Below, one piece after another: positions 1 to 63,852 of a DNA stretch of 64,000 nucleotides (its first letter is position 1; the number at the start of each line of letters is the position of its first letter). This DNA comes from Mustelus asterias (lineage: Eukaryota): positions 3,782,001-3,846,000 of the forward strand of contig NC_135813.1 of the NCBI RefSeq assembly GCF_964213995.1, read 5' to 3'. The translations under genes and the position numbers were made by a program. The notes beneath the pieces are model-generated. The model had not been told where the DNA came from. It saw only the letters and a program-made list of their open reading frames with translations, and made no database searches.

Positions 1-99
1 ATTAAGCTTTCATCGGGTGAAGTGTGTAACTCATGCTCTTTAGCTCCATAGAAAGGGTCAGGTCTTCCTATCCAAGGCTTAGAAATCAATTGCACTCAC

Positions 100-2520: not shown

Positions 2521-2544
2521 CAGCTCCTTCTCCAAGATCAGTGA

Positions 2545-3015: not shown

Positions 3016-3039
3016 GGATCAACAATGCCTTTTCTCGTA

Positions 3040-8619: not shown

Positions 8620-8980
8620 ATGTGGCGGCTCTCGGTGCCTCTGCTGCTGGGCTTGCTGTCCATGGTGAGCGGCCACAATGCCAGTCGGGGCTCCCCCGAC
8701 GAGCTCTTGCTCTGCCGGTCGTGCGGTTTCGAGGTGGCCGCCAGCCGGGATCTCCGGTTCGTGGCCAGCGCCCTGGCTCTGGCTCAGCGGAACGACACAG
8801 TGATCGGCGAGCGCAGGGTCCCGGTGCAGCTCTTCCAGAACCCGCAGGGACTCCGCTTCCAGGTGATCACCTTCAAAAAAGCCGCTGTCCACAGGCACTG
8901 GCCGGCCGATGAGCAGTTCTCCTGGTTCCCCGGGCACTCGTGGACAGTGGCAACTTGCCCCAGGTGTCACAGCCACTTAG
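8620..8980 (+). CDS. Cereblon-like (CULT/Yippee-Mis18 fold) protein with predicted signal peptide, exon 1
   Basis: ATG at 8620; MWRLSVPLLLGLLSMVSG hydrophobic leader; CRSC and CPRC zinc knuckles; FQNPQG and FSWFPGHSWTVATC match the cereblon thalidomide-binding domain; phase-1 donor G|gtttgt; GC-rich coding bias. Confidence 0.9.
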
Positions 8981-9488: not shown

Positions 9489-9648
9489 TGACGTGGAGAT
9501 GCTGGCAATGCATTGGGGTGGGTACAGAGCTTTCAGAGCACTGCTCCTTCATCATGTTAGTGGCTACTCACTTGATGAAGGAGCACTGCTCAACGCTCGT
9601 GATTCCAAATAAACCTGTTGGACTTTAACCTGGTGTTGTGAGACTTCT
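9489..9648. mobile_element. Fold-back Penelope-terminus element (internally deleted)
   Basis: gagctttcagagcactgctccttcatca / tgatgaaggagcactgctc inverted pair, flanked by the TSD tactgtt(c/t)ctaaatta at 9473-9488 and 9649-9664. Confidence 0.75.
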
Positions 9649-12974: not shown

Positions 12975-13966
12975 ACATGGCTTGCCCAAAGGAGGCAGAG
13001 AGTGGGTATAGATGGGTCTTTTTCTAAATGGAGGTCGGTCACCAGTGGTGTGCCCCAGGGATCTGTTCTGGGACCCTTGCTGTTCGTCATTTTCATCAAT
13101 GACCTGGATGAAGAAGCGGAGGGATGGGTTGGTAAGTTTGCCGACGACACGAAGGTTGGTGGGGTTGTGGATAGTCTGGACAGATGTCAGAAGTTACAGA
13201 GGGACATAGATAGGATGCAAGACTGGGCGGATAAGTGGCAGATGGACTTCAACCCAGATAAATGCATCGTGGTCCATTTTGGTAGGTCAAATGGGATGAA
13301 GGAGTACAATATAAAGGGAAAGACTCTTAGTACTGTAGAGGATCAGAAGGACCTTGGGGTCCGGGTCCATAGGACTCTGAAATCGGCCCCGCAGGTGGAG
13401 GAGGTGGTTAAGAAGGCGTATGGTGTGCTGGCCTTTATCAATCGAGGGATTGAGTTTAGGAGTCCGGGGATAATGATGCAGCTATATAAGACCCTCGTCA
13501 GACCCCACTTGGAGTACTGTGCTCAGTTCTGGTCACCTCACTATAGGAAGGATGTGGAAAAGATTGAAAGGATGCAGAGGAGATTTACAAGGATGTTGCC
13601 TGGATTGAGTGGCATGCCTTATGAGGATAGGCTGAGGGAGCTCGATCTTTTCTCCTTGGAGAGACGAAGGATGAGAGGAGACCTAATAGAGGTGTATAAG
13701 ATGTTGAGAGGCATAGATCGGGTGGACTCTCGGAGGCTTTTTCCCAGGGTGGAAATGTCTGCTACGAGAGGACACAGGTTTAAGGTGCTGGGGGGTAGGT
13801 ACAGAGGAGATGTTAGGGGTAAGTTTTTCACAGAGGGTGGTGGGCGAGTGGAATCGGCTGCCGTCAGTGATGGTGGAGGCGAACTCAATAGGGTCTTTTA
13901 AGAGACTCCTGGATGAGTACATGGAGCTTAATAGGATGGAGGGTTATAGGTAGGTCTAGAAGGTAG
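12975..13966 (+). mobile_element. Young CR1 LINE, 5'-truncated, reverse-transcriptase ORF largely open
   Basis: QRVGIDG...SGVPQGSVLGPLLFVIFINDLD...KFADDTK...LYKTLVRPHLEYC; about 275 codons without a stop. Confidence 0.93.
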
Positions 13967-14397
13967 CATTCGGCCTCTGATATTCGGGTAAGCGTTCTCC
14001 AAGGCGGCCTTCGCGACACACGACGGCGCAGAGCAGAAACTGATAGCCAAGTTCCGCACACACGAGGACGGCCTCAACCGGGATATTGGGTTCATGTCAC
14101 ACTATTTGTAACCCCCACAGTTTCACTGGCTGTCTTGTCTGGAGACAATACACATCTTTTTAGCCTGTCTTGATGCTCTCTCCACTCACGTTGTTTTGTT
14201 TCTTAGACTTGATTAGTTGTAAGTATTCGCATTCCAACCATTATTCATGTAAATTGAGTTTGTGTCTTTATATGCTCTGTTTGTGAACAGAATTCCCACT
14301 CACCTGAAGAAGGGGCTTGGAGCTCCGAAAGCTTGTGTGGCTTTTGCTACCAAATAAACCTGTTGGACTTTAACCTGGTGTTGTTAAACTTCTTACT
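13967..14397 (+). mobile_element. Penelope-like element 3' end
   Basis: Encodes ...EQKLIAKFRTHEDGLNRDIGFMSHYL*, then a UTR and the terminal caaataaacctgttggactttaacctggtgttgttaaacttctta. Same family as 2545-3015. Confidence 0.8.
14300..14337 (+). ncRNA. Minimal type I hammerhead-ribozyme motif (Penelope-associated)
   Basis: CAC-CTGAAGA-A-GGGGC(TTGGA)GCTCC-GAA-AGCT-T-GTG: helix I CAC/GTG, CUGANGA core, helix II, GAAA, palindromic AGCT in place of helix III, UH site. Activity untested. Confidence 0.6.
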
Positions 14398-19325: not shown

Positions 19326-19945
19326 CTATAAAGAAAGGGGAAATAGTTAGTGCAAGGCAGCTAGTTGCAGATTTAAAAAAACAAATCAGAATCTTCAGAC
19401 ATTCCTCTAAAAGAAGGAACAACAGGTGCAACACTTGTAGACTCAACAAAAACAAATCGGAACTATTAGACTCTCATCTAAAAGAATCAACAGGTGCAAG
19501 ACTCTAGTTAAAGAATTTGCACCAAGTATTCCAAATTACTCAAACTGTTAAAATGAGATTTCTTGTGTGAAACTCAATTTAAGGAAGGAAGAAAAACAGA
19601 AAGCACATCTTACAAAGTATTCTCCCATTTAACAAAAAGTTACTGGCATTTCAGCATTTAACTAAAATATCAATTTTTCTACTGCATGCGCAGTCAAGCT
19701 AGATCCTCTTTCCTCGGGGTGTTCTGGTGTTAAAAAATATCAAGCATCACATTACACTTCATGACAAATATTTGGCCCAAATCTTAGGCCGGTAAGTGAT
19801 TGAATAATGGAAGACTTGTAAGAAAGGAGATTCCATTTGGATTGATTCAATGCTAGAAGCATGAGACAAATTTAGCCAGCTGCATCATTTTAAAATTTCC
19901 ACACAAATGTTACATTTGGGCCATGAATTTAAAGACAGCACTTGC

Positions 19946-20101
19946 CTCGGCTTCTTCCCCTTCTTCCTCCTCCTCTTCATCCTCTTCTTCTCCCTCTTCA
20001 TCCTCGTCTCCTTCTTCATCAATGTCCTCCAATCCCTCCTCTTCCTCCTCATCTTCATCTTCCTCTTCACCATCCCCTTCTTCGTCTTCCATATCGGGAA
20101 C
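19946..20101 (-). CDS. SET: SET exon 7 (acidic tail)
   Basis: [40 protein letters not shown]...EEAE, 156 nt. Acceptor ttggcag; GC donor GAG|gcaagt. Confidence 0.88.
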
Positions 20102-20650
20102 CTGCCAACACATCACATGAATTACATTTTTTGTCAAGGGACACATTTGTAAAACAAGTTCATCACAATGGTTGAGCTTTTGTACAGAAGGCACAGCTGG
20201 TCTTTAAATGATGTGGGATCGCAAGGATATAGAACAGGCTGTTGCACACACGAAATTAAGATTCCCCAATATTTGTTGCACTATGTCAAAACAGTAAATA
20301 ACTAGAAGATTGAACATACAAATCACTAAAGTAGATCAGCAATCTAGCTCTAGAAAAATCAACACTCACTACCCTAACCATCCTAATTATAAAGCAATTT
20401 TTAAAAAACTCCCAAAAGACAAGCAATTGATTTCATCCTCTCTTGGGTTTTAGCTTGACTGCTCTGTGGCTTTTAATTATTGACAATAGCTACCAAATAG
20501 GCCCGCTCTTTTGTGCAGGAACAAATGCTGAACTTCCCATGAAAAGAGATGCAATACTACTGGTGAAGTTGAATACCCACAGCCCTTATGCCAAATAATA
20601 ATTAATCACCCACCAAATAGTTTGCATGCTGAAGACAGTTTTCAAGTTCA

Positions 20651-20884
<234 letters not shown>

Positions 20885-20949
20885 TTATTTGCATTACAAC
20901 TGTTCAGAAGGTTCAGATACACAAGCAGGTGGAGCACAGCATTTTAAAG

Positions 20950-21240
20950 TAGTTTATTTATTAGTCACCAAGTAGGCTTACATTAACATTGCAATGAAGT
21001 TACCGTGAAAGTCACCACACTCCAGCACCTGTTTGGGTACACCAAGGGAGAATTTAGCATGGCTAATTCACCTAACCTGCACATCTTTGGACTGTGGGAG
21101 GAAACCGGAGCACCCGGAGGAGACCCATGCAGACACAGGGAGAATGTGCAAACTTTGCTCCACACAGACAGTGACCCAAGCCAGGAATTGAACCCAGGTC
21201 CCTGGCGCTGTGAGGCAGCAGTGCTAACCACTGTGCCACC
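20950..21240 (-). mobile_element. HE1/V-SINE in SET intron 5
   Basis: Complete reverse-complement copy with the alternative tail. Confidence 0.88.
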
Positions 21241-22338
21241 CCGGTTTAATTCAGGTTTAAAAAATAGATTAATTCACTTCAGCACAAAAGATGCAAAGAA
21301 GATGTGACAAAACATATGATGCAAAACTAAAGTGCTGAGAATAGCATGAACTATGGAATTAAGCATGTTTAATAGCAACCAGTGTAATTCTAAACTAATT
21401 GCAACAGTACCAAGTTGCTCAAGTAGCTTTTGTTATAACAAATTTCCCAAAATACCCTTCCTCCAGAACTGATAAAATTCAATTATAGAAGCCCATTACT
21501 TCCACAGAAGAGACAACTGAACTCAACAGAAATAGATTTGAAACATCAGGGCTGTACAGCTCAGTACCTGAGCAATTGAAACTAAATTGATGCAGAGAAA
21601 AAATACATTGAAGACTATTGTGAATGGCAGAGATGCTAACTCAAATGTTAACTCCTTTCCACACTAACTTACGAACTGAGATATGCAACTGATTTGTCAG
21701 TTGACGTTCCCCATTACCACCTGGCCATTTGTGAATGACTAAGATCAAAACACATCAATTCGGACATATTCGGCATGGAAACAAAAATCAGGCAAATACT
21801 TAAATCAATATGCCAAATACGCTCCAGTCCAACTGTACACATCAGCTGTGAAGTACTTGCCCAAAGGAAATGAAGCAGTCATCACAACATATTGCTTTTG
21901 GCCCCTCATGTTGAGGCTCTAAGAATATTAACAAACATCACCCTAGTATCCTTTTCCAACCTCAAGGTAGAAAAAATAATAAATTGCCAAGTCACAAGAT
22001 CAATGCAGTCTTTTCAGGCAGGATGAAGTTAGGAACGGAGTATGCCATCCAGTCCCTTGAGACTGTTGTCATTCAATTAGATCATGGCAGATTATCTCAA
22101 TTCCATGCACTTGCTTAGTTCTTAAACTTTATTACACTACCAAACCTGAACTAAACTTTCAAATCATTCCAAGTCTCAACAGCAATTTTAGGACATTTCC
22201 AGATGTATGCTACCCTTTGCATGAAAATCTTTCCTGATATCACCCCAGTAACTCAAATAAATTGGTTTTCTGAACATAATTATAGGTTTACATGCCTTTC
22301 AGAATCACCCATGAGATTAAATAAGAATCCAGTAGTTA

Positions 22339-22557
<219 letters not shown>

Positions 22558-23859
22558 TCAGTACATTTGAGTAACTACCTGACAGTGGTAGCAGTCCAAG
22601 CCCCACTGTTGATACTTCAATTACTTAAAGCAGTCATATAAAAAAAAACAATCTCAAATGTAGTATATTTATTGAAAGGTTGTAATAATAGATTGCACGA
22701 AGAATTAAAAGTGGAGCATTCACCAAGCAATTAAACACTTGGTAGTTAACCCAAATGTTTACTTGACAATACTGTTGGCATGCACGTGCATTAAAAAACG
22801 GAACTGCCCTACGAATACTAATTGCTAAACAGAGAACCGAAAATCATAGATGAGGTACATTATTCAAGATGCAGTGCCAAGGTTTCTGTACGTCAAACCA
22901 TTTACAACCTTTGCTCAATTATAGTGCATTTACTTGAAGCAGGGTGAATGGGTGACTTGAGTCCCTCTCCAGAGACCTCGACACAAAATGCAAACTGATT
23001 TGTCAATCTGACAAGAGGGAGTGTTTCACTGTCAGGGCTGTTTTTTTTGGATGAACCTTTTAATTATGGGCCCACCTGCCTGTATAGGAAGTTTCCTATA
23101 GTTTCCAGAGTAGCTGTTTGAGGTTAATCACCACAAGACAAGTCTTATAAAACAACCTCAATATCAGTCATTTGATGTGTAAGAAGTCAAAATGCCACCT
23201 TGACACATGAAGGTGCGTTAAGTGTAGTTAGTCAAGCAACAGGTCATCTTGACTGAAGGATGATTCACCTTTAGTGCAAAAGATTACAAAGAACAATAGA
23301 TAATTTGCTCGTGGGGGAACACAACAGCCAACCCCAAGAATATTGAGGCAAATTGACATTCTTCCCAACTCTGTTCAACTTCATGCCTGCAAACTTGCAG
23401 CAATTCAGAGATCTTCCCCACTATTTTTGTGCAGTTAATTGCATCAATCACCAAGACCACCGACTTGCAATAGATAAAATTCAAATTTAAGGTTTTAGGA
23501 ATTTGATATTTGAGTGGGTTAATAATTCTTCAATTACCTCATTTGTGAAAATTAGTGCATCTGCTGTTGCATCAGCAAAATAAAAATTCCATTATACTTC
23601 AAGACAGACTGGTAGTTTTAAAAATAGAGGTATTATTTCTCAAAACAAATTTGAAACCAGGATTTTAAAAAACAGCAATGGAAATAATTAACTCACCCTA
23701 CAAAAATGACATTATACTTAAAAAGAACAAGTGGAAACTTATCACTCCCATGGATCAAGGAATTTTAAAGACAAAATGAAATTTAGAGCTGCCGAATACA
23801 CATTTTCAATTGTTTAGCCCTGTAAAACAAATTTGCTTTTAATAGTCAATCCAAAATCA

Positions 23860-24009
<150 letters not shown>

Positions 24010-25848
24010 TTACATTTAACTGAATTGTTTGATAATTTCAGGCCAACAGTGATGTATCAAATATACTGGCCAAATCTTGTAGTGCAATATTCAAGCAGCT
24101 TCAGGTCCACAGTATTGATTTAAAATGTAAGATAGAGACAACAACACTGTAAATGATAAAATTGAAAATACAATCTTCTCATTAACAGAAGATTTCATGC
24201 CCTTTAAAATTCAAGGCCATTGCTAGTGAGACCTCCAAATTTACCAATAAGCAGCACCAAAATTACTACGTGCAAGACAACCTGGTAGAGCACTCCCTAA
24301 TTGTTGTATGTGGAGGAAGGAAGGAAATCAGAAGGCTCATATCGTGCATATACACTATAATGTCCCTTGCCTGGCTCTTTGTAAAACGTGGAAACAGATA
24401 CATCCACTGACCATTTTGCTACATTTTACATAATACATACCTAAACTATTTCTTCATTCAAAAGAGAAAATTAGAATACACACAATAGGCAAGATTTCAT
24501 GCCATAGCACGCTAATACAAGCACTTTCCAAGTTCCAAGCCTCACTGCCAAAACTTTCTCGTTGCTGTATATGGGATCATGCTGTGCATAAAATGATTAC
24601 TGCAATTTCCCTATATTACAATAGAGCTAAATGCACCTCAATAAAGGCACCATGAGCTTTCCATTCATTCACACTATTAGAAATGTTACAAGTTAAAATT
24701 TAAACTAACACCACTTAATTACTGTAAAACATCTTACACCATTTGCATTGAATTAAACAGCAAAATGTCCATCTGGAACATAATAGATGCAAGCACTTGT
24801 TACATTACTGCTTCTACAGTTACAACCCACTTCTTACATATTCAAAGTTGGGGGAGGGGGCACAATAATCGGCCTTAATGCACCAAGGCCTTTGGGAAAC
24901 GTAAAAGAGACCACAACGCCACTCTGGAATGTCAGGGATATAGGCCACGGAAGGATTGAGCACAGCTGTGACTTCCTCACATCGTCAGATAGCCTGACAC
25001 TCAGGTTAATGTATGGCACTTATAAAGAAAGAAAAGCAACTTGCTGCAGCAGAAATTTGCATTATCAAGAATCTGGGCTTCTACAAAAGGGAAAAACATT
25101 TAATGAATTCCTTTCCTACACCTCAAGATGGTACACACAACCAATGTTTAAAAGCACAGTGACCAACCTTTGCATCTAGTGAGCAACCAATTCTCTGTAC
25201 CCATTCCCAAAATACGGAGAACAAATAATTTGTTTTTGCCCAGATATTTTCCAATGTTTGGGAGCAAAAACATTCATTGGGACATTGGGTTATGCTATTA
25301 ACAGACAGACCATCCTAATTTCTGTTCAAAATGTAAAAACACGATAACAATCAAGTTATAATTTAAAACGGAGCACAACTTAAGCAAGCTTTATAATTTC
25401 TTCTAATCAAGCCAAAAGAGTTGCAAAGCAATATCGCAAAGGAAACTTCAAAACTTGCGGCAAGTTATTAATTACTATAAGCCAATGGTTTCAAACACAA
25501 CTTTAGCTTAGTAAACAGCCACATCAGCAAAAACAGAATGGCAACTATAACATTGGCTGCAGAAAAGAGCATAACCCAGTAAGACTAGCACAACACAAGA
25601 TTAAAAACAAGCTCTCAATGATCCAAATCGTCATGGCTGTGGTTTGCTGTAAAGTAATACCGACTTTTGATCAGTGCTGCAGTAAATAGCATGTGCCTCT
25701 AGGGGTCATTGTTAAAGGAAAGGCAACTAGTACTCATTACAATGGCAAGGAAGTTCATAGAAACTCAGCCAATACATTTTGACTATAACGCCATGCCCGA
25801 GAGTGTCTAAAATTGAGTCACGATTGCTTCAATTCCTTGAAGTTGAAT

Positions 25849-26026
25849 CACAGCACCAGATTAAAGTCCAACAGGTTTATTTGGAATCACGAGCTTTTGG
25901 AGCGCTGCTCCTTTATCGTTCACCCGATGAAAGAGCAGCGCTCTGAAAGCTCGTAATTCCAAATAAATCCGGTGTTGTGATACTTCTTACTGTGCCCACC
26001 CCAATCCAACGTCAGCATCTCCACAT
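25849..26026. mobile_element. Fold-back Penelope-terminus element in SET intron 3
   Basis: Palindromic arms around ~25920, flanked by the perfect 13-bp TSD cttgaagttgaat (25836-25848 and 26027-26039). Confidence 0.8.
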
Positions 26027-26210
26027 CTTGAAGTTGAATATGCTCCATATAATCAGATTCTACTGCAAACAAAGATAAAGCTCCCTTTCAATAAACTATC
26101 ACACAACAAATTTTTACACAGGCAACATAAGAAAAATCCCTGACATGTTCACATCAAAATTGTATCTCCCACACGTTCTGTTCTCCCAATTTATTTACAG
26201 CCATTCTTTA

Positions 26211-26405
<195 letters not shown>

Positions 26406-30795: not shown

Positions 30796-31379
30796 GTAAG
30801 TCTTGCATCTGTAAAAGTGAAAACTTGCATCTGTTTCGATTTCTACAACATTATTTGTAAAATGGGATCTGAAATGAGAATGCAAACACATGCAGTTCAA
30901 TGCATTTGCGAAACGAACTCTTAATTTGGCCATCATGATTCACCATTATTTGGCTGGACCTTCCCCTTGAGTGCATGCCCCACAGAAAGAAGCAGGCGCT
31001 GTCTACATGGCAAAACCTGTAGCATGTCGCGCTCCTTGAATAAAGTTGATGGGAAGCCAACCGATGCCGGATAAAGTCAGAGGTTGGAAGTGCTCAGTTG
31101 TCAAAAAAGGAAGGTCGGGTTAATCTCGAACGCATGACCGACCATTCTGTAGAGCAGGGATCATTGATAGTATAATTAATCCTACCTTCACTGCTCCCTT
31201 CTGGGCATATTTTCTGTTCTTATTGCAAGTAATGTAAGAGTTGTCTGGGGAATTTTATAGAGTAAGAGTTTTAACAACACCAGGTTAAAGTTTATAGAAA
31301 CATTTGTTGAAATACACCCATGCTGTAGTTTTCAATATATTTCTATATATTTAATGCTGATCATTAGCGTTTTCATGTT

Positions 31380-31770
31380 TAAGTTTATTTATTAGTGTCA
31401 CAAGTAGACTTACATTAACACTGCAATGAAGTTGGGGTGGCACAGTTGTCAGCACTGCTGCCTCACAGTGGCAGGGACCCGGGTTCGATTCCTGGCTTGT
31501 GTCACTAACTTCATTGCAGTGTTAATGTAAGCCTACTTGTGATACAAATAAATAAACTTTACTGTGAAAATCCCCTAGTTGCCACACTCTGACACCTGTT
31601 CAGATACATTTGAGGGAGAATTTAGCATTGCCAATGCACCTAACCAGTATGTCTTTCGCACTGTGGGAGGACACGGGAGCACCAGGAGGAAACCCATGCA
31701 GACACAGGGGAAATGTGCACAGTCACCGAAGCCAGGAATCGAATCCGGGTCTCTGGCACTGTGAGGCTCC
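31380..31770 (-). mobile_element. HE1 SINE with an internally deleted plus-strand copy (31434-31560) nested in its tail
   Basis: The tail is split at gaagtt|actgtgaaaatccc by a head+tail mini-copy, creating ~53-bp inverted arms. Confidence 0.75.
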
Positions 31771-36089: not shown

Positions 36090-37290
36090 CATTCCTCCAT
36101 CATAAAATCAGAAGTGGGGATGTTCACTGATGATAGCACAATGTTCAGTGCCATTCACAACTCCTCAGATTCTCAAGCAGTTCATGCAGTCCCTTATAAG
36201 AACTAGAAGCAGGAGTAGGCCTGTCCCTCGAGCCTGTACTGCCATTCAATAAGATTGTGGCTGATCTTTTCGTGGACTCAGCCCCACTTACCCGCCTGTT
36301 CACCATAACCATTAATTCCTTTACTGTTTAAAAATTCATCTCTCTTTGCCTTAAAAACATTCAACGAGGTAGCCTCAACTGCTTCACTGGGCAGGGAATT
36401 CCACAGATTCACAACCCGTTGAAGAAGTTCCTCCTCAACTCAGTCTTAAATCTGCGCCCCTTATTTTGAGGCTATGTCCCCTACTTCTGGTTTCACCAGC
36501 CAGTGGAAACAACCTTCCTGCTTCTATATTATCTACTCCCTTCTATATTATCTGCCCCCCCAGCCCCCCAGCCCCAGTCTACTTAGTCTTTCCTCATAAG
36601 CCAACCTGCTCAACTCAGGAATCAACCTAGTGCAGCAAGGCCTATGCAACATTCAGGCTTGGGCTGATAAGTAGCAAGTAACTTTCATGCCACACAAGTG
36701 TTGTGGAATGCCTTCAACAGAGAGAATTTGACCACCTTCCTGACATTCAATGGCATTACTGTTGCTGAATTCTCCTCTATCAGCAAGTGGTAAGTGGGAC
36801 TTACCATTGTCCAGAAACTGAACTGGACCAACCATACAAATGCTATGGCTACGAGAGCAGGTCAGGGGCTGGGAATTCTGCAAGTAACTCCCCACCTGAC
36901 TCTCTAAATCCTATCTACTGTCTACAAGGCATAAGTCAGCAGTGTGGTATATTCTCTACTTGTCTGGATGAGAGCAGCCCCAATAGCACTTAAGAAGTCC
37001 AAGCAGCCTGCTTTATTGGCACTTTATCCACCACCTTAAACATTCACTTCCTCCCCACTGACACAGAGGCTGCAGTGTATACCATATGCAAGACACACTG
37101 CAGCAACTCACCAAGGCTCTTTTGACAGCACCTTTCAAATCCATAACCTCTACTGCCTAGAAGGACAAGGCATAGGAACACGATCACCTCCAAGCCACGC
37201 ACAATCTTGACTTGGGTTCAAGAAGGCAGCTCACCACCACCTTCTCAACGACAATTAGGGATGGGCAACAAATGCTGCCCTAGCCAATGA
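36090..37290 (+). mobile_element. Old CR1/L2-clade LINE 3' part with an antisense CR1 3' end (~36198-36632) nested inside
   Basis: RT remnant (atgttcactgatgat; caggcttgggctgataagt...). The tail caattagggatgggcaacaaatgctg is shared with SINE family B. Confidence 0.6.
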
Positions 37291-48635: not shown

Positions 48636-49785
48636 TTGAGGTTCTGGGGGAAGTGAGGAGATCCAATGTTTTTTGTCATGAGAATAAATTTAAAAATCGG
48701 AGTCGATGCATTCTTGCTTTCAATATGTTAAGGATGAGAGAGGTGCAAAGAGCAAATTGGTTGATATCAATGCATCAAGTTGGATGAAGTATTGGAGTTT
48801 AGGAGGAAAGATCAGATATGAAATTACCATAGTTATAATGATAAAGAGAGAAAATGTGAATGGTAGAGGTAGGAGTAGGCCATTCAGCCCCTTGAGTCTG
48901 TACATTTCCAGTATTTTTCCATTTATTTACAGATTTGCAACATTCACAGCATTCACTTTGTCTCTATACATAGTCTTTGCTTCCAGTCTGTAATCTTCAG
49001 TTCTGTGGTGGTAATGAAGAAGGTTTTATCCAGTTAGCTTAGCTGTTTGCTACTTTTAAGGGATGAAGGCCCATGGAAGAGGGAGGCAGTTCCAAACGTG
49101 CATCAATAATGATATTTCATCACGCATTATTGAAAAAATGTAACCCTGCAGTGTGAATGCAGTCTGCAAGAATGGGACAAATACAGAGGTATTTGCCCCA
49201 TTCTTTCAAATGCATTCACAGTACAGGTTACTTTCTTATGTACCTGAAAGGCTGGCGATTATTGCATTATTTCTGGGTAAAACACTGCTTAAAAGAGAAA
49301 GACTTGCATTTATTTAGTGTTTAGGCGAAAAAGTGACAATGCACTTTGGGAGGGCAGACAAAGCAATGGAATACACAAAAATGGGAGGATATTGGGAGGA
49401 GCGAGCAAGTGAGAGGCTTTGCAGAACATGTCCATAGGTCCCCTGAATGTGACAGGAAAGCTAGATAAGATGGTAAAGAAAGCAAATAGAAAGCTTCCTT
49501 TCATTGGACGAAGTATAGAATACAAAATCAGGGATGTAATGCTGGAACTTTATAAAATGCCTAGTTGGGCCACAGCTGGAATTTTGTGTCCAGTTCTTTT
49601 TCCTTAGAACAGAGAAGGCTAAGGGGTGACCTAAGTAAGTGAAGTGTAGAAAATTATGAGAAGTCTAGGTTGAGTAGGCAGGTAAGACTTGTTTCCCCTA
49701 GTGGAGAAGTCAATTATCAGCAGGCACAGATTTAAGGTAATTTGTGGAAGGATTAGGGGGGATATTAGGAAAATTAAGGCTACAA

Positions 49786-50985
49786 GATGAACGCAGGTAA
49801 AATCGCTGGCAGCAATGCAATCCTCCTTGATGAGCTCAACGCATTCTATACCCGTTTTGAGCAAGAGGTCAGCGAGAGCACGCCTTCCACCCCAGAAGCC
49901 TCGGGTGAACCTGGATCCGAGGTTACCATCACAAACGTCAGGGCAGCCTTCACGAAAGTCAACCCACAGAAAGCAACTGGCTTGGATGGGGTACTTGGAT
50001 GAGAACTCCGATCCCGCGCAGGTCAGCTGGCGGGGGTATTCGCAGACATCTTTAACCTCTCTTTACACCAATCTGAGGCCCCAATCTGCTTCAAGAAGAT
50101 GACCGTTATCCCGGTACCAAAGAAAAGCCAGGTAGCGTGCCTTAATGATTATTGTCCGGTGGCTCCGATATCCATCATTATGACGTGCTTAGTCATGGCA
50201 CAAATCAATTCCAGCCTCCCAGATTGGATTCTCTACAATTTGCCTACCACCGCAAGAGGTCCACAGCAGATGCCATCTCCCTGGGCCTACACTCAACTCT
50301 GGAACACCTAGACAACAAAGATACCTATATCAGACTCCTATTTATTGACTACAGCTCAGCCTTCAACACCATTATTCCTACAAAACCCATCTCCAAACTC
50401 CATGGCTTGGGGCTTGCCTCCTCCCTCTACGACTGGATCCTAGTCTTCCTAACCCACAGACCGCAATCAGTAAGAATAGGCAACAACACCTCCTCCAAGA
50501 TCATCGTCAACACCTTTGCGCCACAAGACTGTGATCTCAGCCTCTTACTATACTCCTTATGCACCTATGACTGTGTGGCCAAATTCCCCTCCAACTCAAT
50601 TTTCAAGTTTGCTGATGATACCACCGTAGTGGATCAGATCTCAAACAATGTTGAGACGGAGTACAGGATAGCGATAGAGAATCTGATGAACTGATGTGAC
50701 GACAATCTCTTCCACCTTCTTCCGTCGGGAAAAAGATACAAAAGTCTAAGGATACGTATCAACCGACTCAAGAGCAGCTTCTTCCCTGCTGCCATCAGAC
50801 TTTTGAATGGACCTACCTCGTATTAAGTTGATCTTTCTCTACACCTTAGCTATGACTGTAACACATTCTGCATTCTTTCCTTTCCTTCTCTATGTACGGT
50901 ATGCTTTGTGTAGCGCGCAAGAAACAATACTTTTCACTGTAAGCTAATACATGTGCCAATAATAAATCAAATCAAATCAAAAAAC
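49786..50985 (+). mobile_element. Rex1/Babar LINE (RT region), inserted into an older CR1 (~49325-51200)
   Basis: [15 protein letters not shown]...[16 protein letters not shown]...KFADDTTV; (atcaa)n tail. CR1 sequence resumes at aactttctcaaccagaaggtggtagg. Confidence 0.85.
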
Positions 50986-51234: not shown

Positions 51235-53530
51235 AGTCATTAATGTAGAAAATGTGACAGCCATTTTGTGTGACTAGTTGGCCTAACATCTGTATTTGAG
51301 AAATTATCATAGCCTATACTTAAGGATAAAGTAACTAAGCACCTTAAAAATTTGCAGCTAATCAGAGCGGGCAGGCATAGATTTACGAAGGGTTGGTTAC
51401 GTCTGATGAAGCTGTTTGAATTTTTTGAGGAGTTGTAGTGGGGAGGGGGATGTCTACAGAGGTTATTTCTATGAACCTCTGGAAGACATTTGATGATGTC
51501 CCTCATAAAGAGATTTTTAACTAAAGTTGAAACTTGTGGAATTGAAGGCAGGTTATTGGCCTGTTTAGGAAATGGACTGAGCAGCAAGATACAGACTAGA
51601 TACTCTAATTGGCAGGATGCAAATAGTGGCGTCCTTCAAGGATTTGTGTTGGGAACTCAATATTCACTATTTATTAAATGATGGGATAGAAAGTTTGCCA
51701 ATCACACAGGGATAGGCAGCATTGCAAAGCAGTCAAGATATAAAAATATACAGAGAAATATTAATACGAACATACCAGTTTGGAGTAGGTTAGCAATGGG
51801 CCATTCGGCCCCTCGAGTCTGCTTCACCATTCAATAAGATCACGGCTGATCTGTTTGTGTTTCAAATTCCACATTTCCACATAAATAGTGAATATTGAGT
51901 TCCCACCCCAGATAACCTTTGATTTACTTGCCTAACAAGAATCTATGTACCACCTCCTCAAAAATATTCAATGACTCCACCTCCACCACCACCTGAGCCA
52001 GAGAGTTCCAAAATCGAATAACCCTCTGAGAGAAAAGAATTCTCCTCATTTCTGTCCTAAAAGCGTGACCCCTATTTTAAAAATGTAAATTTTCTGATTT
52101 GTCCTGTTTCCCATTGTGCGCTCTTTGCTGAGCGAACAGACTAATCTGTAAAATAGATGTTTGCTGTGAGTCCTTATCTAAGTCCTCCTCTGCCTCCAAC
52201 TTGCTGGTGACAGTAGTATGGGTGGACATTTTGCAACTCCTTAGTAAATCAGGATTACATAGGAGCAGGAGTAGATCATACGTCTATACGGAGCCACTCA
52301 ACATGATCATGGCTGATCTTGAGTTTCAGCACCACTTTTTTGTCTATTCCCCCTCAGAGACCATATATCTGCCTATGCCAGCCTTAAATATAGTCAAGAT
52401 TGGTGCAGCTAAACCCCCTTTGGGTCGAGAATTCCAAAAATTCACAACCCTTTGAGTGAAGTAATTTCTCCTGGTCTCAGCCCTAAATGATCGTCCCATT
52501 ATCCTGAGACTGTTTCCCATATATTCTAGATTCTATAAAGTTTGAACTTGTCAGTGTTGATGTACAGAAATACAATACAAAGTTAGCCCGCAGGTACAGC
52601 ACGACCAGCATTTAGGAAGGCCAATGGCATGCTGGCCTTTATTCCAAGGGGATTGGAGAATCGGAATAAGAAGTCTTACTAACAACTATACAGGGCTTTA
52701 GTGAGACAATACTTGGGAGTACTATGTGCAGTTTTGGTCTCCATATTTAAGGAAGGATACAACTGAATTGGAAACACCTCTCTGTGTCTAACCTGTCAAG
52801 AATGAGATCACCTCTCATTCTTCTAAACTCCAGAGAATGTAGGCCCAATTTACTAAGTCTCTCACCCCAGGTACAAATCTAGTGAATTGTTGCTGTATTG
52901 CCTCCAATTCGGTTGTATCCTTCCTTAAATATGGAGACCAAAACTGCACGTAGTACTCCAGGTATTGTCTCACTAAAGCCCTGTACAGTTCTTAGTAAGA
53001 GTTCTTTATTCTTTGCTCCCTGTCTTTAACCATCTATCCATGCTAGTATATTACCCCCCCACTCCATGAGCTCTTGTCTATTTTAACCTTTGGCTTTGAC
53101 AACATATCGAATGTCTTTTGAAAATACAAGTGTGAGATAATCTACTGGTTCCCTTTATCTACCCTACTAGTTACATCCTCATAAAACACAATTTCCCTTT
53201 TGAAAAACCACACTGACTTTGATTGATCATGCTATGATTTTCCAAGTGCATTGTTAAGACTTCCTTAATAATGGATTCCAACACTTTCCCAATAATTGAT
53301 ATCAGGCTAACTGGTCTATAGTTACCTGTTTTCTCTCTCCCTTCTTTCTTAAAAAGCGATGTTACATTTGCTGCTCTTTATAGTCTGCTGGGATCATTCA
53401 ATAATAAAGGGAATTTTGGAAAATCATAACTGAAGCATCCCACTATCTCTGTATTTATCTCTTTAGAGGCCTGGGATGTAGGCCATCAAGTCCTGGGGAT
53501 TTGTCAGACTACAGACCCTTAAGTTTCTCC
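51235..53530. mobile_element. Cluster of degraded CR1 fragments in both orientations
   Basis: RT remnants (SGVLQGFVLG; gagtactatgtgcagttttggtctcc) on both strands. Confidence 0.7.
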
Positions 53531-57000: not shown

Positions 57001-57145
57001 AGCCTTCACTGTCTCAACCAGAGAACAATCAGCAGCAGGGCATATTGTGAACTTCGGTAGAAGGAAGGAAGGGACAAGTTGGACATTTTCTTTGCTTTCT
57101 TGAAATATTTGAGTTTTAAAACAAAACTCTTTTTTTTCAAATCAG

Positions 57146-57313
57146 GTGCAGTGGATCCCGAGTTTAAGCCGCAGTAACCGAATTCATGTTCTGAGTGCAA
57201 GCACTGATGGGAAGATTCTGATATGGCAGATGGATGGAAGAGGGCAGCTGGTTCTGCAGGATGGCTTCACCCTGATTGTACAGCAGATGCCGCGCAACAT
57301 CAAACTCCACAAG
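57146..57313 (+). CDS. DYNC2I2: DYNC2I2 exon 5
   Basis: VQWIPSLSRSNRIHVLSASTDGKILIWQMDGRGQLVLQDGFTLIVQQMPRNIKLHK, 168 nt. Confidence 0.92.
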
Positions 57314-57593
57314 GTGAATAGTCTCTGGAACAGGAGTGGGCTTGTCTATGGGAGGTTCAGACTCTAGTTAAAAGTATCCTATTGATGTTAATGAGATGTC
57401 TGAACTCCACAGTTACATAGAAGCTTGAACTTTAGAATATTTAAAGCGCCTTGTCTCAACGTCAGCTTGCATTTAATAAGGCTATAGGCTCTTGCGCCAT
57501 CATAATGGAGGATGTCTGTTGTATAACTGATGAGAGTTAAGACTGCAGCAGCTGGTAGGTGTTAGTGGTTGCATGTCTAAGATTTGGCATATG

Positions 57594-58052
57594 TTGGCAC
57601 CGTGGTTAGCACTGCTGCCACACAGTGCCAGGGACCCGGGTTCAATTCCCGGCTGGGTCACTGTCTGTGTGGAGTTTGCACATTCTCCCTGTTTCTGCAT
57701 GAGTTTCGTCTGGGTGCTCTGGTTTCCTCCTACAATCCAAAGATGTGCGGGTTAGGTGCATTGGCCATACTAAATTCTCCCTCAGTGTACCTGAACAGGC
57801 GCCGAAGTGTGGCGACTAGGGAATTTTCACAGTAACTTCATTACAGTTCCTGTACAGTACAGGCGCCTGTTCAGGTATGCTGAGGGAGAATTTAGTATGG
57901 CCAATCCACCTAACCTGCACTTCTTTGGAGTGTGGGAGGAAACCAGAGCACCCGGAGGAAACCCACGCAGACATGGGGAAAACATGCAAACTCCACACAA
58001 ATAGTAACCCAAGGCTGGAATTGAACCCGGGTCCCTGGCGCTGTGAGGCAGC
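57594..58052. mobile_element. Tail-to-tail pair of HE1 SINEs (plus 57594-57845, minus ~57857-58052)
   Basis: Two opposite copies, adjacent to each other. Confidence 0.85.
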
Positions 58053-58209
58053 ATTGTCGCCCCATGTTGACCATTTTCTTGGATGAAGGCAAACATAGGC
58101 AACGAAATTCATCAGCCCATCTAATGTTCCAATAGCCTTCAGTCAACTGAGGTCAAGAGTATTTGAGGACCAGGATTTCACAAATCTGAGACTTGGTCAT
58201 GGTTTGCTG

Positions 58210-58720
58210 GTCAATAATGACCTTCTATATACTTTGGAGACTTGGACAATTTGCGACAGGCACCTCAAAACTACAGTTATACCACCTGCTGTGCCTTATC
58301 ATGATCCTCTAAATCTGGGCACAGGACGGGTGGTCCAACAGCAATGGTTCTCCCAAGCCAATGTGCCTTAACATCTAGGTAGTAACCAGCTTTGTCGGAC
58401 GGGACAAGTCAAGACTGCTGTAGTCAGACCTTGGTCGCAGTAGGAAATTCTCAGGAGGACAACAGAAATACTTTAGGGATGTCCTCAAAGCGCCCCTGAA
58501 GAGGTCAAACATTGCTGCTGACTCATGGGAGTCCCTGGTCTGTGACTGATCAAAATGGAGGTTAATTGGGGAAGGTGCTGAACACATTGAGATACTTTGT
58601 CGGGAACATGCAGAGGTGAAGTCAAGGCATCAGAGAGAGTACAAACCTCTACATTTCATTTGCCCAATCCTTCAAGCACCAAGTGCCCTGCATATGACAA
58701 AGTCTGCAGATTGTGGATTG
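58210..58720 (+). mobile_element. Degraded RTE-clade LINE 3' fragment
   Basis: Translates to ...SGGQQKYFRDVLKAPLKRSNIAADSWESLVCD*SKWR, resembling the RTE ORF C-terminus. Confidence 0.55.
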
Positions 58721-58729
58721 GATTTATAA

Positions 58730-59048
58730 AGGAGATAATGGCCTAGTGGTATTATCGCTAGATTATTAATCCAGATACTCAGCTAATGGAATTTGAATTC
58801 AAGAAAAACTTCCGGGAATTAAGAATCTACTGATGACCATGAAATCATTGTCAATTGTCGGAAAAACCCATCTAGTTGACTAATGTCCTTTAGGGAAGGA
58901 AATCTGCCATCCTTACCCGGTCTGGCCTACATCTGATGCCAGAGCCACAGCAATGTGGTTGACTCTCAACTGCCCTCAGGCAACTGGGAATGGGTAATAA
59001 ATGCTGGCCAGCCAGCAACGCCCATGTCCCAGGAATGAATAAAAAAAA
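58730..59048 (+). mobile_element. tRNA-derived SINE (family B)
   Basis: Homologous to 7160-7515. Confidence 0.8.
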
Positions 59049-59649
59049 TTATCAGTCATCTCAGAACCCATCAAACTGGATGGAAGTGAATCATCCTCAA
59101 TCCCAAAGCACTGCCTATGGAATGGTGCTAACAAAACAAAACAAAATACTGCAGGTGCTGGAAATCTAAAGAACACAAAATACAAGAAGCACTCAGCAGG
59201 TTTGGCAGCATTTGTGAAGAGAGAAATGGAGTTAATGTTTCAGGTTGATGATTTTTCATCAGAACTTAGAGATTTAACAGGTCTTTGAGCATGTAGAGAC
59301 CTGAGGTGGGTGAAAGAACAAAGGGATGATCTGTAGTTCACAGATTCTGTAATTGGTAAGTGGAATGTCTCTCATATCTGATAAATAACTACCTTTAGTA
59401 GATTTATCTATAGCTTGCTTGGCGACTGTTCGGCGAGGCAATGGGCTTTTTGTATACAAGCATCTGACTATTCATCATATTGTCCATCTAGATGGTAGTG
59501 CTCGTGGGTTTGGAAGGTGCTGTCTAAGGAAGCTTGGTGAGTAGATGGTAGCCATGATGTGGCGATGCCGGCATTGGACTGGGGTAAACACAATAAGAAG
59601 TCTCTCAACGCCAGGTTAAAGTCCAACAGGTTTATTTGATAGCACAAGC

Positions 59650-59685
59650 CACTAGCTTTCGGAGCGCTTCCCCTTCATCAGGTGA
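59650..59685 (-). ncRNA. Minimal hammerhead-ribozyme motif (opposite strand)
   Basis: Minus strand reads CAC-CTGATGA-A-GGGG(AAGCG)CTCC-GAA-AGCT-A-GTG. Confidence 0.55.
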
Positions 59686-59694
59686 GTGACTGAC

Positions 59695-59730
59695 TCACCT
59701 GATGAAGGGGCAGCACTCCGAAAGCTAGTG
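59695..59730 (+). ncRNA. Minimal hammerhead-ribozyme motif
   Basis: CAC-CTGATGA-A-GGGG(CAGCA)CTCC-GAA-AGCT-A-GTG. Confidence 0.55.
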
Positions 59731-61612
59731 GCTTGTGCTACCAAATAAACCTGTTGGACTTTAACCTGGTGTTGTGAGACTTCTTACTGAGTAGATGGTA
59801 GACATGGCTGCCATTGGTGTAATTGGTGGAGGAAGTGAATGTTTGTGGAAGGGGTGCCAATCAAGCAGGCAGCTTTGTCTTGGATGGTGTTGAGCTTCTT
59901 GAGTGTTATTCAAGTTGCACTCATCCAGGCAAGGGAGAGTATTCCATCACACTCCTGACTTGTGCCTAATAGATGGTAGATAGGCTTTGGGGAGTCAGGA
60001 GGATTCCTAGCCTCTGACCTGATCTTGTGGCCGCAGTGTTTGTATGGCTAGTCCAGTTGAGTTTCTCATCGATAGTAACTCCCTAGGGTTTGTAGGGATT
60101 GAGTGATAATGCCATTGATTGTCAAGGGCTGATGGTTAGATTCTCTCATTGGAGATGGTGATTGACTGCACTTGTATGGCGCGAATATTACTTTACTGAT
60201 CAAGAGGAGATTGATGGGACAGTAATTGCCTGGGTTGAACTTGCCCTGTGCTTTGTGTACTGACATACCTGGGTTATTCTCCACATTGCTGGGTAGATGC
60301 CAGTATTGTAGCTGTGCTGGATCAACTTGGTTAGGGCTAATATCCTAGTTCTTCACTATTGTCCTTTTTGCAGAAGGAAATCTTCCATCCTTCCCTGGTC
60401 TGGCTTACATGTAATGGGATTGAATCTTCACTGCCCTATGAAATAGCCTAGCAAATTATTCAGTTCAAAGGTGGTTGGGAATGGGCAACAGATGCTGGCT
60501 TTGCCAGCAACACCCACATCCCATGAAAGGATAAAGATTATTTAATCACTTAGATAATGGGCTAGCCACCTACCCAGATTCGCTGATGTGGTTTCCTCCC
60601 ACAATCCAAAGATGTGCGGGTTAGGTTAATTGGCCATGCTAAATTGCCCATTAGTGTCCCGGGATGCATAGTTTAGAGGGATTAGTGGGTAATATATGTA
60701 GGGATGTGGGGATAGGGTCTGGGTGCAGTTGTGGTCGGTGCAGACTCGATGGGCCGAATGGCCTCTTTCTGCACTGTAGGGTTACTTCCTATGAAAAGGT
60801 AGACTGCATTGTAAGCAATGTAAATGGAAGCGTAAAATGAGTGACAAAACTGTGGCAGAAGAGTTTTAATGTAATCAAATGTGAGGCTATCCACCCTAGA
60901 TCTGAGAAGGATAGAATATATTTTCTAAATGGTGAAAGGCTAGAAACAGTAGTGCAAAGAGATAAAAAACAGAAAGTGCTGGAAAAACTCAGCAGGTCTG
61001 GCAGCACCTGTGGAGAGAGAAACAGAGTTAATCAGAACTGTTGTACACCTGGAGTGAGCAGTTAATGGAAGGATATATAGGTCTTGCTGGGAGTGCAGCA
61101 TTGATTAGCCAGATTGATGCCTGGATACCCCAGGTTAAATTACAAGAGATTGCACAAATTAGGGTTGTGTTCCTGAGATTTAGAAGGCTGGCGGGTGATT
61201 TGATCAAAGTTTTCAAGATTAGGAGAACAGATAGAATATCTTCTTCCAGTGATTGGAGAGTCTGGGATTAGGCGGCATTATTTAAAAAGAACCAAGTCTT
61301 TCAGCAGTGAAGGGTGTTAAAAGAACTTTTTTGTTGCAAACAGCAATTGATGCTAGATATATTATTGTTAAACTTGAGATAGATAGATTTTTGTTCGCCA
61401 ATAGGATTAAGAGCTATCAGGAAAAGATGGGTATAAGGAGTTAAGTTGCAGATTAATTCTGATCTCATCGAATGGTGGGGGAGCAGACTTGAGATACTTA
61501 AATACCCCTCTTAGTTCGCATGTTCCTACATCTTGTATAAGATGGACCCTGTTAGTTACACATGATATCCTTTTCTGTTCCATCCTTTTTATGCATCTTA
61601 AATCATCCACAG

Positions 61613-61839
61613 GCTCGTGAGGACACTTTGTTTGGTGTGACCTCTCTCTCTTTCTCTCATCTGGATAAGACTGTGTTTATTGCTGGTGTGGAAGGTGGTT
61701 ATGTGTTGAAGTGTTCAACAGAAGTTCTGGCACATGCAACACCAAGCTCTGGCTCTGTTCCATTGAAGGCTCCGGCTCAGTTCACCTTCTCTCCACATCG
61801 TGGTCCTGTTCATGCTGTTGATTGCTCGCCATTCCACAG
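61613..61839 (+). CDS. DYNC2I2: DYNC2I2 exon 6
   Basis: AREDTLFGVTSLSFSHLDKTVFIAGVEGGYVLKCS...PAQFTFSPHRGPVHAVDCSPFH(R), 227 nt, donor gtcagt. Confidence 0.92.
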
Positions 61840-62005
61840 GTCAGTACACAAAGCGACACAGGAAAAGAGCTGGGGTGGGCTTCTGTTTGGGGGGAGGAAA
61901 TAGGAAGCTCCCCCTTAGGTGATCAAAACTAGTCCAGGAAATCACGGTGACCTTCTTTACCGTACCTATCTTTTTGAAATGATCTCTCTGCCAGCCAGAA
62001 ACAGA

Positions 62006-62081
62006 AGGGGCTTGCAGCTTGTGTGGCTTTTGCTACCAAATAAACCTGTTGGACTTTAACCTGGTGTTGTTAAACTTCTTA
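62006..62081 (+). mobile_element. Short Penelope-terminus insertion
   Basis: 76-bp piece of the terminal repeat, flanked by the 14-bp TSD cagccagaaacaga (61992-62005 and 62082-62095). Confidence 0.75.
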
Positions 62082-62791
62082 CAGCCAGAAACAGACCCAG
62101 TTCTCCTTTGAAGGAATTCAACAAAACAGCATCCACCATCTCAGTAGCAGCCAAAGATCAACTCTTCCTTGGGATGGCAGAATGAGGGAACCACCTCATC
62201 ACATCTGGCTTTACATAACTCATGTGACCTTTTGTTCTCCCTAAACTATTCAGACAGAAGTGTACTTTTGTTTTTGTAAATTCACTGCCCAGAGGACATT
62301 CTTTGCAGAAATTAGGATGAGTGAACTCCAGTGCAGTGCTGAAGAAGTGCTGTTCTAATTGTGCTGTCTTTTGTCCCTCTTGGATAGATGTAAAAGCAAC
62401 ACTATCTGATCAGCCAAGATCAAGATGAATGGCGGAGCAGGCTTGAAGGGCCGAATGGCCTACTTCTGCTTCTAGTTTCTATTTTGAAAAGGAGCTGGGG
62501 AGTTCTTCCTGGTGTTGTGGGCCTGTGTTTATCCCTCAACTAACGTTGCAAACAGATTTCCCAGTCATTATCCCATTGTTGTTTGTGGGATCTTGCTGTG
62601 TACAAATTGACTTCCTATATTAATTAATGACTGCACTTCCAAAATACTTCATTGGCTGTAAAGAACTCTGGGGCATTTTAGTTGTGAAAGACATGACAAA
62701 AATACAAATCTTTTATAAACTGGGCCAATCTGCAAAGCTATGAACAAGTATGTGTATTGTCCACTGAGTGAATTGTCAATTGTTCACACAG

Positions 62792-62949
62792 GAACCTCTT
62801 CCTAACTGCTGGCACCGATGGGCATGTCCACCTTTATTCCATGTTGCAGGCTGAGCCAGTTCTTTCTCTTCAGTTATCTCAAAGTTATCTCTTCAGTGTT
62901 CGCTGGTCTTCTGTCCGACCTCTAGTTTTTGCTGCTGCTACAGGAGAAG
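62792..62949 (+). CDS. DYNC2I2: DYNC2I2 exon 7 (not in ORF track)
   Basis: [52 protein letters not shown], 158 nt, cag/gtaaga. Confidence 0.92.
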
Positions 62950-63613
62950 GTAAGATGTATTACTGGATCAAACTTGGAGGTGCTGGGTTTGGACTCAGTG
63001 GGTGAATTTCAGGGCAGAGAGCTCCAGATTTAGAGCTTCCAGGTGTGTAACATCTGGATTAATCCCACTACCACACGATGGACTGGTGCTATGTAAGTGC
63101 ATGTCTTTCTTTCGCACCAAGTCCCGTTTACCCTTTTGCCCTGTGCTCGCTGATATTAGCTCCTGATCTGGCAATGTCTCTAATGTTCGCCACTCTGTCG
63201 TTGACACCTGTGTCTACCTTCAGCTGCCTTAACACTCAATTCTGGAATTCCAGCCTAAACCTCCCCACCTTGGAGACACTTATTAAAATCTAACTTGCGC
63301 ACCAGGCTTTCTATCCCCTGTCCTTGTGGCCTGGTATCAAATTATGTTTGATGACAGACCTGTGGGACTATGCAATATGAATGTAGACTGTGCTTATAAT
63401 CAGATTAATATATTCCCATAAACCTGTTAAATCTGGGCTAACATCAGTAGCAATTTACATTCTATCTTGGTTTTTGAAATATTAAAATAATTAGGGATGA
63501 AACTTTTGTATTTGAAATTTCTTATACCTGAAATGGTTAATGGAATTTATTAATTTGTGTGGAGGGATTTTTACTGTTGAAGATTGAAATGAACTTTCCT
63601 TTTATTTCTATAG

Positions 63614-63852
63614 GAACCGTGTTGATTTTTGACCTTGGGCAGAGCTCTCTTTATCCGGCAGTTTCCATTGAGCAGAATATAGAAAAGAAACCAGTTTACT
63701 GTCTGGCATTTAACCCCAAGCAACCCGAGCTTCTTGCAGCTGGTAATGCAGAAGGAAGTGTGAAAGTCTGGCAGCTGAGTGCTGAACTGACAAAGCAAGG
63801 ACCAAGAGAAGTGACTGTCCTTGAGCAGCTTGCTAATGAAGTTGCAGATTGA
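63614..63852 (+). CDS. DYNC2I2: DYNC2I2 exon 8 (last coding)
   Basis: (G)TVLIFDLGQSSLYPAVSIEQNIEKKPVYCLAFNPKQPELLAAGNAEGSVKVWQLS...EVAD*. Joined CDS is 1506 nt = 501 aa. Confidence 0.93.

Follow-up and report, generated by a model that had tools for sequence, protein, structure and literature searches.

In the EN+ Penelope-like elements (PLEs), as described by Craig et al. (2021, PMC8557442) and Arkhipova et al. (2013, PMC3846280), an insertion unit combines a head-to-head copy, a tail at one end, a palindromic junction, a short variable target duplication and a hammerhead ribozyme in the terminal repeat. Indeed, an inverted 5'-truncated copy with a 30-40-bp tail at one end is given as typical of PLEs (PMC8557442; likewise PMC8969392), and head-to-head palindromic junctions are called abundant and ascribed to self-priming (PMC3846280), with most of the published inverted structures lying around long copies (PMC8557442, PMC3846280). 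A biochemical comparison is offered by PAc, a Poseidon element of the anole (Frangieh et al. 2024, PMC11167929). Both strands of the target are cleaved and then extended by its protein; reverse transcription begins at two internal positions on the RNA, and these bound the tail, a hammerhead lying a short way upstream. The hammerheads of metazoan PLEs are of a minimal type I (Cervera and De la Pena 2014, PMC4209133), and pairs of them on opposite strands, 100-700 bp apart, were noted in Schistosoma in the same 2014 paper. A further set of relatives, the non-LTR retrozymes (PMC7229834, 10.64898/2026.07.22.740005), are non-coding, PLE-related elements with type I hammerheads and target duplications of more than 4 bp.

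The DNA that we analysed, a window of 64,000 nucleotides from the shark Mustelus asterias, holds at 59552-59787 a 236-bp insertion that is an EN+ PLE insertion unit of this already described architecture, namely the head-to-head inverted, 5'-truncated 3' end of a shark Neptune-type PLE with a tail on one arm. The original prediction of a palindrome of inverted Penelope ends, flanked by a 14-bp target-site duplication, is borne out, with the true start at 59552 rather than 59556; repeat comparison shows the duplication to be exact (59538-59551 on the left, 59788-59801 on the right). The unit had been put at about 190 bp, and while its inverted arms stand, this description missed the PLE tail of 41 nt (59552-59592, minus strand), which lies outside the palindrome on a single arm and has homologues at 9489-9526, 25991-26026 and 3802-3839. 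Next comes arm 1 (59593-59688, minus strand), recognised by the inverted repeat and by copy alignment as the PLE 3' end cut off at its 5' side just upstream of the hammerhead, and containing a pattern match to a minimal hammerhead core at 59653-59681 on the minus strand (helices I and II of 4 bp each). In the predicted fold the head-to-head junction falls at 59689-59692, within a 5-nt loop (59688-59692), and its letters are unlike the centres of the other loci. Arm 2 (59693-59787, plus strand) is the same PLE 3' end without a tail, stopping at the terminus common to the one-armed copies, and its own core (59699-59727, plus strand, again by pattern match) is sense to DYNC2I2, with a cut predicted after 59727 if positions are numbered by analogy with PMC4209133. 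Both arms sit in one target duplication; the common terminus closes one of them, and the other extends 41 nt beyond it. Compared over 59588-59687 and 59693-59792, they are 100 nt long and 93% complementary (7 of 100 positions differing, 5-nt spacer), and 59596-59787 has a predicted folding energy of -166.7 kcal/mol (z -25.6), which none of 200 shuffles equalled. The departures from the published EN+ units are that each shark half is cut down to about 95 nt and no ORF separates the two, and that the turns cluster at the 5' edge of the hammerhead.

Seven further copies lie in the window, giving four with two arms (59552, 25849, 9489, 3414) and four with one (62006, 31262 and the long copies at 13966-14397 and 2537-3050). 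The original prediction had grouped five of these as related, more decayed fold-backs, which holds for three of them: 25849-26026 (13-bp duplication, tail on the plus arm, decayed cores and a 15-nt deletion in the plus arm), 9489-9648 (16-bp duplication with one mismatch, tail on the minus arm) and 3414-3839 (12-bp duplication, tail on the plus arm), the last with 230 nt of filler between its arms (3498-3727) that is unrelated to them and in part matches another repeat. The other two are one-armed, 5'-truncated stubs, one of 76 bp at 62006-62081 on the plus strand (14-bp duplication, no tail, a broken core, and identity to the linear copy at 13966-14397 in 78 of 79 columns) and one of 29 bp at 31262-31290 on the minus strand (8-bp duplication, no hammerhead). 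The duplications at all five have the lengths that had been quoted, so that six of the eight loci show variable duplications of 14, 13, 16, 12, 14 and 8 bp; as a control for chance, a shared 12-mer occurred in 19 of 3000 random pairs of 40-nt windows 200-300 bp apart. For the two long linear copies no convincing target duplication was seen. A fixed 3' terminus with 5' truncation runs through all eight loci, at 29 to about 510 bp per arm, and an adjacent head-to-head inverted copy is present at four of the eight. The tail follows a simple rule, being found on exactly one arm in each of the four two-armed loci (41, 38, 36 and 38 nt, 82% mean column identity) and on none of the four one-armed copies. 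Centres differ at all four two-armed loci, and sizes run from 160 to 426 bp. The 59552 arms, 94% identical to each other, 83-92% to the linear copies and 76-90% to most other fold-back arms, share a subfamily indel that is absent from the other three two-armed loci; the six loci quoted in the original prediction are not one family, the arms coming from at least two subfamilies.

The parent element can be approached through the two longer copies, in which the arms are continuous with GIY-YIG coding sequence. That at 13966-14397 (plus strand) has a frameshifted GIY-YIG coding end followed by the 3' region, with an intact core at 14304-14334 and a 6-bp helix II, while that at 2537-3050 (minus strand) has the last 73 codons of the PLE protein followed by the same 3' end. 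A protein search with the coding frame of the window picked out 16 of its 20 candidates as relatives, those that carry names being reverse transcriptase proteins from sharks, and the window copies match the last 73 residues of the best relative, P0001, at 71-89% (71% for the copy at 2537-3050). P0001 has a reverse transcriptase domain (Pfam RVT_1); visual inspection adds a CX4CxxC linker and a segment of GIY-YIG type (VVY..C..C..YIG, with two inner cysteines), although Pfam gave no GIY-YIG match in this protein. A CX2-5CxxC linker between reverse transcriptase and nuclease marks the Neptune and Nematis clades (PMC8557442), and it is seen in the relatives P0001 and P0002, outside the window; we would accordingly label the parent an EN+ PLE of Neptune type, a label by linker motif that does not separate Neptune from Nematis. 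The shark protein with its Neptune-type linker is of a different clade from PAc (PMC11167929). These findings confirm the Penelope origin that had been claimed. No description of this shark family was found in the literature searched, exact-pattern scans of metagenome contigs and prokaryote genomes gave no loci, and a protein scan of metagenome contigs gave 66 candidates, none of them confirmed.

Contigs of four of the 23 listed public sequencing runs were aligned to 59380-59960 at 80% likeness (78,432, 62,912, 101,394 and 4,918 contigs, the last from X18). In run X1 the unique flank has a single-copy depth of 23.1. Depths summed over the contigs of this run reach about 22 million at the 3' end and 4 million on the tail, then drop to 2-3 million in each arm where the hammerhead lies and to about 23,000 at the centre. 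Such sums are not copy numbers, and at the centre the overhanging ends of linear copies are counted along with true fold-backs; we therefore use only the gradient, a crude but steep fall from 3' to 5'. In all four runs loose ends pile up at 59787-59789 with an agreement of 0.34-0.44, which means that the terminus is fixed and the flanks beyond it are many and varied. The four runs together gave 1180 joints, and among the 15 listed five skip the whole insert and ten lie inside it, all ten at different coordinates; none of these 15 has an exact empty site in related organisms. Inserted letters are known for 567 joints, and the 12 of these that are listed are all different, several removing the hammerhead entirely, while joints marked 'between: not known' may be places where the alignment breaks at subfamily indels. 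A few joints nevertheless recur in two or three runs, for example 59635 to 59754 with a depth of 863.6 against the single-copy 23.1 in X1, and these recurrent joints have 1-5 letters of microhomology. A centre one letter shorter than that of 59552 is present in contigs of X1, X3 and X9 (12, 20 and 6).

What, then, are the fold-backs? The original prediction offered two readings, an independent retrozyme- or MITE-like family mobilised by Penelope proteins, or recurrent truncation-inversion products of Penelope insertion, and it is the second that the varied centres, the subfamilies and the many turning points in the contigs support. We consider it very probable that the fold-backs are recurrent, dead-on-arrival products of PLE insertion, that at 59552 being a single insertion of a Neptune-type PLE. 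An independent non-autonomous family, in which a master hairpin would be transcribed and re-inserted by PLE proteins, is very improbable in our judgement. Non-autonomous PLE derivatives are certainly known (MRC1, PMC8557442; retrozymes, 10.64898/2026.07.22.740005), and the clustering of turns near the hammerhead's 5' edge, the near-identical centres in three runs and the joints that recur across runs far above single-copy depth all speak for such a family. However, the units are inverted with none head to tail, the duplications range over 8-16 bp, the sizes over 160-426 bp, and each locus has its own centre and subfamily, at least two subfamilies being involved, in addition to the many turning points among the contigs, and because of this the reading goes unsupported. 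Moreover, the outer ends fall on the two termini of the element, as priming sites would, whereas one ragged end would be expected of a re-copied hairpin; the RNA signals are predicted to be buried in the hairpin; and joints with 1-5 letters of microhomology could recur independently. The earlier text had also opposed shared structures to random lengths and junctions, and here the junctions are varied, which by that text's own measure counts against an independent family, with the reserve that the turns are non-random, lying no more than about 10 nt from the first base of the core at three of the four two-armed loci and in one arm of the fourth. A turning hot spot exists, and perhaps small amplified groups as well; since the turns cluster and near-identical centres appear in three runs, small amplified lineages are possible.

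Neither of the two more specific names fits. In retrozymes the repeats run head to tail and each unit has a hammerhead on the same strand, by which monomers are set free (PMC7229834, 10.64898/2026.07.22.740005), linear and circular monomer RNAs being abundant, whereas the shark units are head to head with one core per strand, and we reject this identity because the arms are inverted and each strand has a single core. The likeness to MITEs can be judged in the same manner. These elements have a target duplication of fixed length, set by the transposase, a uniform size and a shared internal sequence, and with duplications of 8-16 bp, sizes of 160-426 bp, four different centres and many contig joints the MITE identity is likewise rejected.

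If the fold-backs are insertion products, their making can be sketched as follows. The GIY-YIG nuclease of the element would make a staggered cut in the target, of 14 nt here and 8-16 nt elsewhere; each end of the target would then prime reverse transcription, with the two internal starts on the RNA (the common terminus and the tail end) in use; both cDNAs would stop after about 100-140 nt and be joined with a few extra letters. Each fold-back would in this way be made anew from ordinary PLE RNA. We give this double-priming route an even chance, and see in a lone cDNA that folds back and serves as its own template a somewhat less probable but serious competitor; the present data do not separate the two. 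Neither arms-only PLE fold-backs in sharks nor double priming in PLEs turned up in the literature searched, which is poor in subscription papers. A quite different origin would be recombination within a longer unit made up of inverted repeat, terminal repeat, ORF and a second terminal repeat, in which an exchange between the direct repeats removed the ORF and left a pair of short arms, a solo product, within the original duplication. Such a long arrangement is typical for PLEs and solo repeats are reported (PMC3846280), and the clustered turns would be accounted for if the terminal repeats of this family often begin at the hammerhead; but none of the eight window copies is a long two-armed unit, the steep depth gradient shows that very short products are the norm anyway, and the 230-nt filler at 3414 is left unexplained, all of which makes solo recombination quite unlikely, marginally more so even than an independent family.

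Turning to the ribozyme itself, the pattern CTGANGA-N12-20-GAAAGCTH has three matches in the window (59699-59727 plus, 59681-59653 minus and 14304-14334 plus) and none in each of 100 shuffles. The core pattern is kept in three of 11 arms tested, these being both 59552 arms and the linear copy at 14304, so the claim of hammerhead motifs on both strands stands for the 59552 locus and fails for the other fold-back loci. The minimal PLE type that had been proposed is borne out by the core pattern and by features listed in PMC4209133, which the shark motifs share: the CUGANGA and GAAA boxes, the extra base after A9 and before helix II, a G10.1-C11.1 first pair of helix II, a palindromic 15.2-16.2 and a short helix I; helix II has 4-6 bp in the shark against the 7-8 bp reported for Schistosoma (PMC4209133). 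Of 49 cells in helix II 89.8% are paired, and one of the five pairs has changed on both sides, a level of covariation that 123 of 500 shuffles attain and that is not significant; a one-sided A-U/G-U variant is common in contigs, helix I having been excluded from the covariation count because subfamily indels misalign it. An Rfam search of the window gave no hammerhead at E up to 10 (seven matches, to other families), and minimal hammerheads may lie outside the Rfam models. The best of these Rfam matches is a sub-threshold microRNA match on one PLE hairpin insertion.

Would such a motif act in the host RNA? Two isolated arms in silico could pair through the palindrome (-20.8 against -14.6 kcal/mol), but inside the whole insert the hammerhead fold costs 66.8 (plus strand) and 69.4 (minus strand) kcal/mol. 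The Schistosoma pairs are a useful contrast here, for the shark motifs start only about 20 nt apart, and each core is buried because the two motifs are each other's complement. Furthermore, the polymerase reaches the antisense arm first whichever strand of the insert is transcribed, and in predicted folding of every plus-strand prefix from 59706 onward the emerging core is already paired. The two 59552 cores lie one per strand and never together on one RNA, and a pattern search of the window found no same-strand partner core in DYNC2I2. Single minimal hammerheads did not cleave in vitro and dimers cleaved weakly (PMC4209133), while the anole PLE hammerhead needed protein and was dispensable for insertion in vitro (PMC11167929). 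Given core burial, separate RNAs and this weak published activity, cleavage of DYNC2I2 pre-mRNA would be unlikely; the 59552 motifs are in all likelihood trapped within the hairpin and without activity, and long double-stranded RNA would be a more plausible product. The core-intact hammerhead that had been placed in DYNC2I2 pre-mRNA is thus present as sequence but predicted to be buried in a hairpin during transcription. On the insertion reading the hammerheads would simply have come along with the PLE terminal repeat as passengers, and in host pre-mRNA, where pairing holds them in a long hairpin, no cleavage is expected of them.

The idea that a domesticated intronic ribozyme or hairpin regulates DYNC2I2 strikes us as extremely improbable. 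Both 59552 cores are intact where the pattern fails in eight of nine other arms, and the plus core is sense to the gene; yet the 7 differences per 100 arm positions, with one helix II pair broken per arm, are what neutral decay of a younger copy would leave, the core is sequestered by a predicted 67 kcal/mol or so, the gene has no same-strand partner core and single minimal hammerheads did not cleave in vitro (PMC4209133).

More speculatively, the fold-backs might record PLE integration together with hammerhead action in vivo, cleaved RNA having served as template, although we are doubtful that this is so. The basis is four loci, one deletion and two contig joints: the minus arm at 9489 passes from the hammerhead cut position directly into the start of the tail, and the two joints restart at 59728, the predicted cut, a weak pointer to a few breakpoints at the cleavage site. 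Taken in full, this reading would hold that, of the two target ends, one invariably uses the end of the tail as its priming site and the other the common terminus, that reverse transcription halts or runs out of template at the 5' edge of the hammerhead, and that some breakpoints fall exactly at the cut. The formation of inverted PLE structures is called undefined (PMC8557442), and the PAc paper (PMC11167929), in the portions open to us, describes no fold-back products, found no read ends at the cut site and saw no hammerhead cleavage in vivo, which is why a one-tail rule, a turning hot spot and an excess at the cut site would matter more. If true, the abundant shark copies would make both the inverted or tandem PLE structures and the role of the ribozyme testable by counting. 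For annotation, the lesson would be that short TSD-flanked hammerhead hairpins in shark genomes are ordinary Penelope-type insertion products, not to be named MITEs, retrozymes or microRNA precursors.

The insert at 59552-59787 is intronic in DYNC2I2 (WDR34), since plus-strand exons flank it: 57113-57364 upstream, and 62772-63002 and 63541-63849 downstream, match human WDR34 residues 270-327, 399-460 and 458-535 (the first two lie in exon-containing frames placed by protein match), and a further exon is likely at about 61600-61840 (plus strand) by translation alone. The claim of intronic copies in three host genes holds for DYNC2I2, while 25849 lies between two exons with a NAP domain (SET-like; 23860-24009 and 26211-26405) and beside 3414 and 9489 a Pfam scan of frames gave single exons only. 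That scan covered 364 frames, namely 363 of 864 stop-free frames (at least 48 codons, less than 30% repeat cover) and one PLE frame, so that short exons were missed; within its limits the first exon of an HR1 (PKN-like) gene was not found. Long hairpins in host pre-mRNA, also predicted at the outset, are accordingly supported by the predicted -166.7 kcal/mol hairpin in the DYNC2I2 intron, 3414 and 9489 being putative intronic copies. The intronic hairpins are candidate substrates for editing or small-RNA production. A>G differences stand at 38 places in the contigs of X18, where the three remaining runs have 25, 23 and 39; X18, however, comes from a different organism and is RNA by guess, and neither this count nor its 4,918 contigs inform on expression or editing. 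The target of the 59552 insert was itself a decayed repeat, LINE-like by reading, with a paralogue at 36665-37168 and a short local deletion that predates the insertion, and contigs of this target repeat skip the entire insert (joints 59542 to 59824). Lastly, a donor-like CAG-GTGAGT motif on both strands was considered as a selected splice signal and rejected, being largely the complement of hammerhead helix I and the core.

Two sets of breakpoints fall at or beside the position at which the hammerhead of these two-armed insertions is predicted to cut. In the insertion at 9489-9648, which is flanked by a 16-bp duplication and carries its tail on the minus-strand arm, that arm (9489-9562) retains the hammerhead as far as its predicted cut position, where the sequence switches directly to the tail's first base. 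A deletion meeting both landmarks to within one base has a probability of about 0.0012 under a uniform draw, a value calculated post hoc for one of several deletions. At the main locus, the 236-bp fold-back at 59552-59787, contigs from four public sequencing runs gave two joints from 59637-59638 to 59728 among the 12 listed with known inserted letters, and here the restart is the base after the predicted plus-strand cut site. These restarts at 59728 could be explained by a subfamily indel together with microhomology at the same spot. Each arm of this insert also holds, within the DYNC2I2 intron, a consensus-like candidate splice donor, CAG-GTGAGT, at 59679-59687 (+) and mirrored on the minus strand.

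Domain searches place an HR1 (PKN-like) exon at 89-400 (-) and NAP (SET-like) exons at 19913-26405 (-), and sequence matching places the DYNC2I2 exons at 57113-63849 (+), a neighbourhood that is presumably the same as in human. A CpG-rich stretch contains a further exon at 8620-8979 (+), about 500 bp upstream of the 9489 insertion. Its coding sequence combines an N-terminus that is hydrophobic with a cereblon-like domain of the thalidomide-binding type, which matches cereblon structures at E 2e-07.

The Penelope-like element (PLE) nuclease C-terminus is found inside the annotated shark isoforms P0009, P0014 and P0015 (PPP1R12A-like, FAM210B and septin 5a), representing either exonisation or an annotation artefact. 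Two reverse transcriptase (RVT_1) fragments, at 50149-50691 (+) and 53174-53377 (-), have no tblastn match to the PLE protein, and on this comparison we therefore assign them to other retroelements. The palindromes at 31370-31570 and 57610-58056 are unrelated to the PLE ends and consist of oppositely oriented fragments from a family of short tRNA-like repeats. An imperfect 104-bp palindrome at 49134-49237 has no second match anywhere in the window, and a tandem array of 33-bp period occupies 1258-2082.
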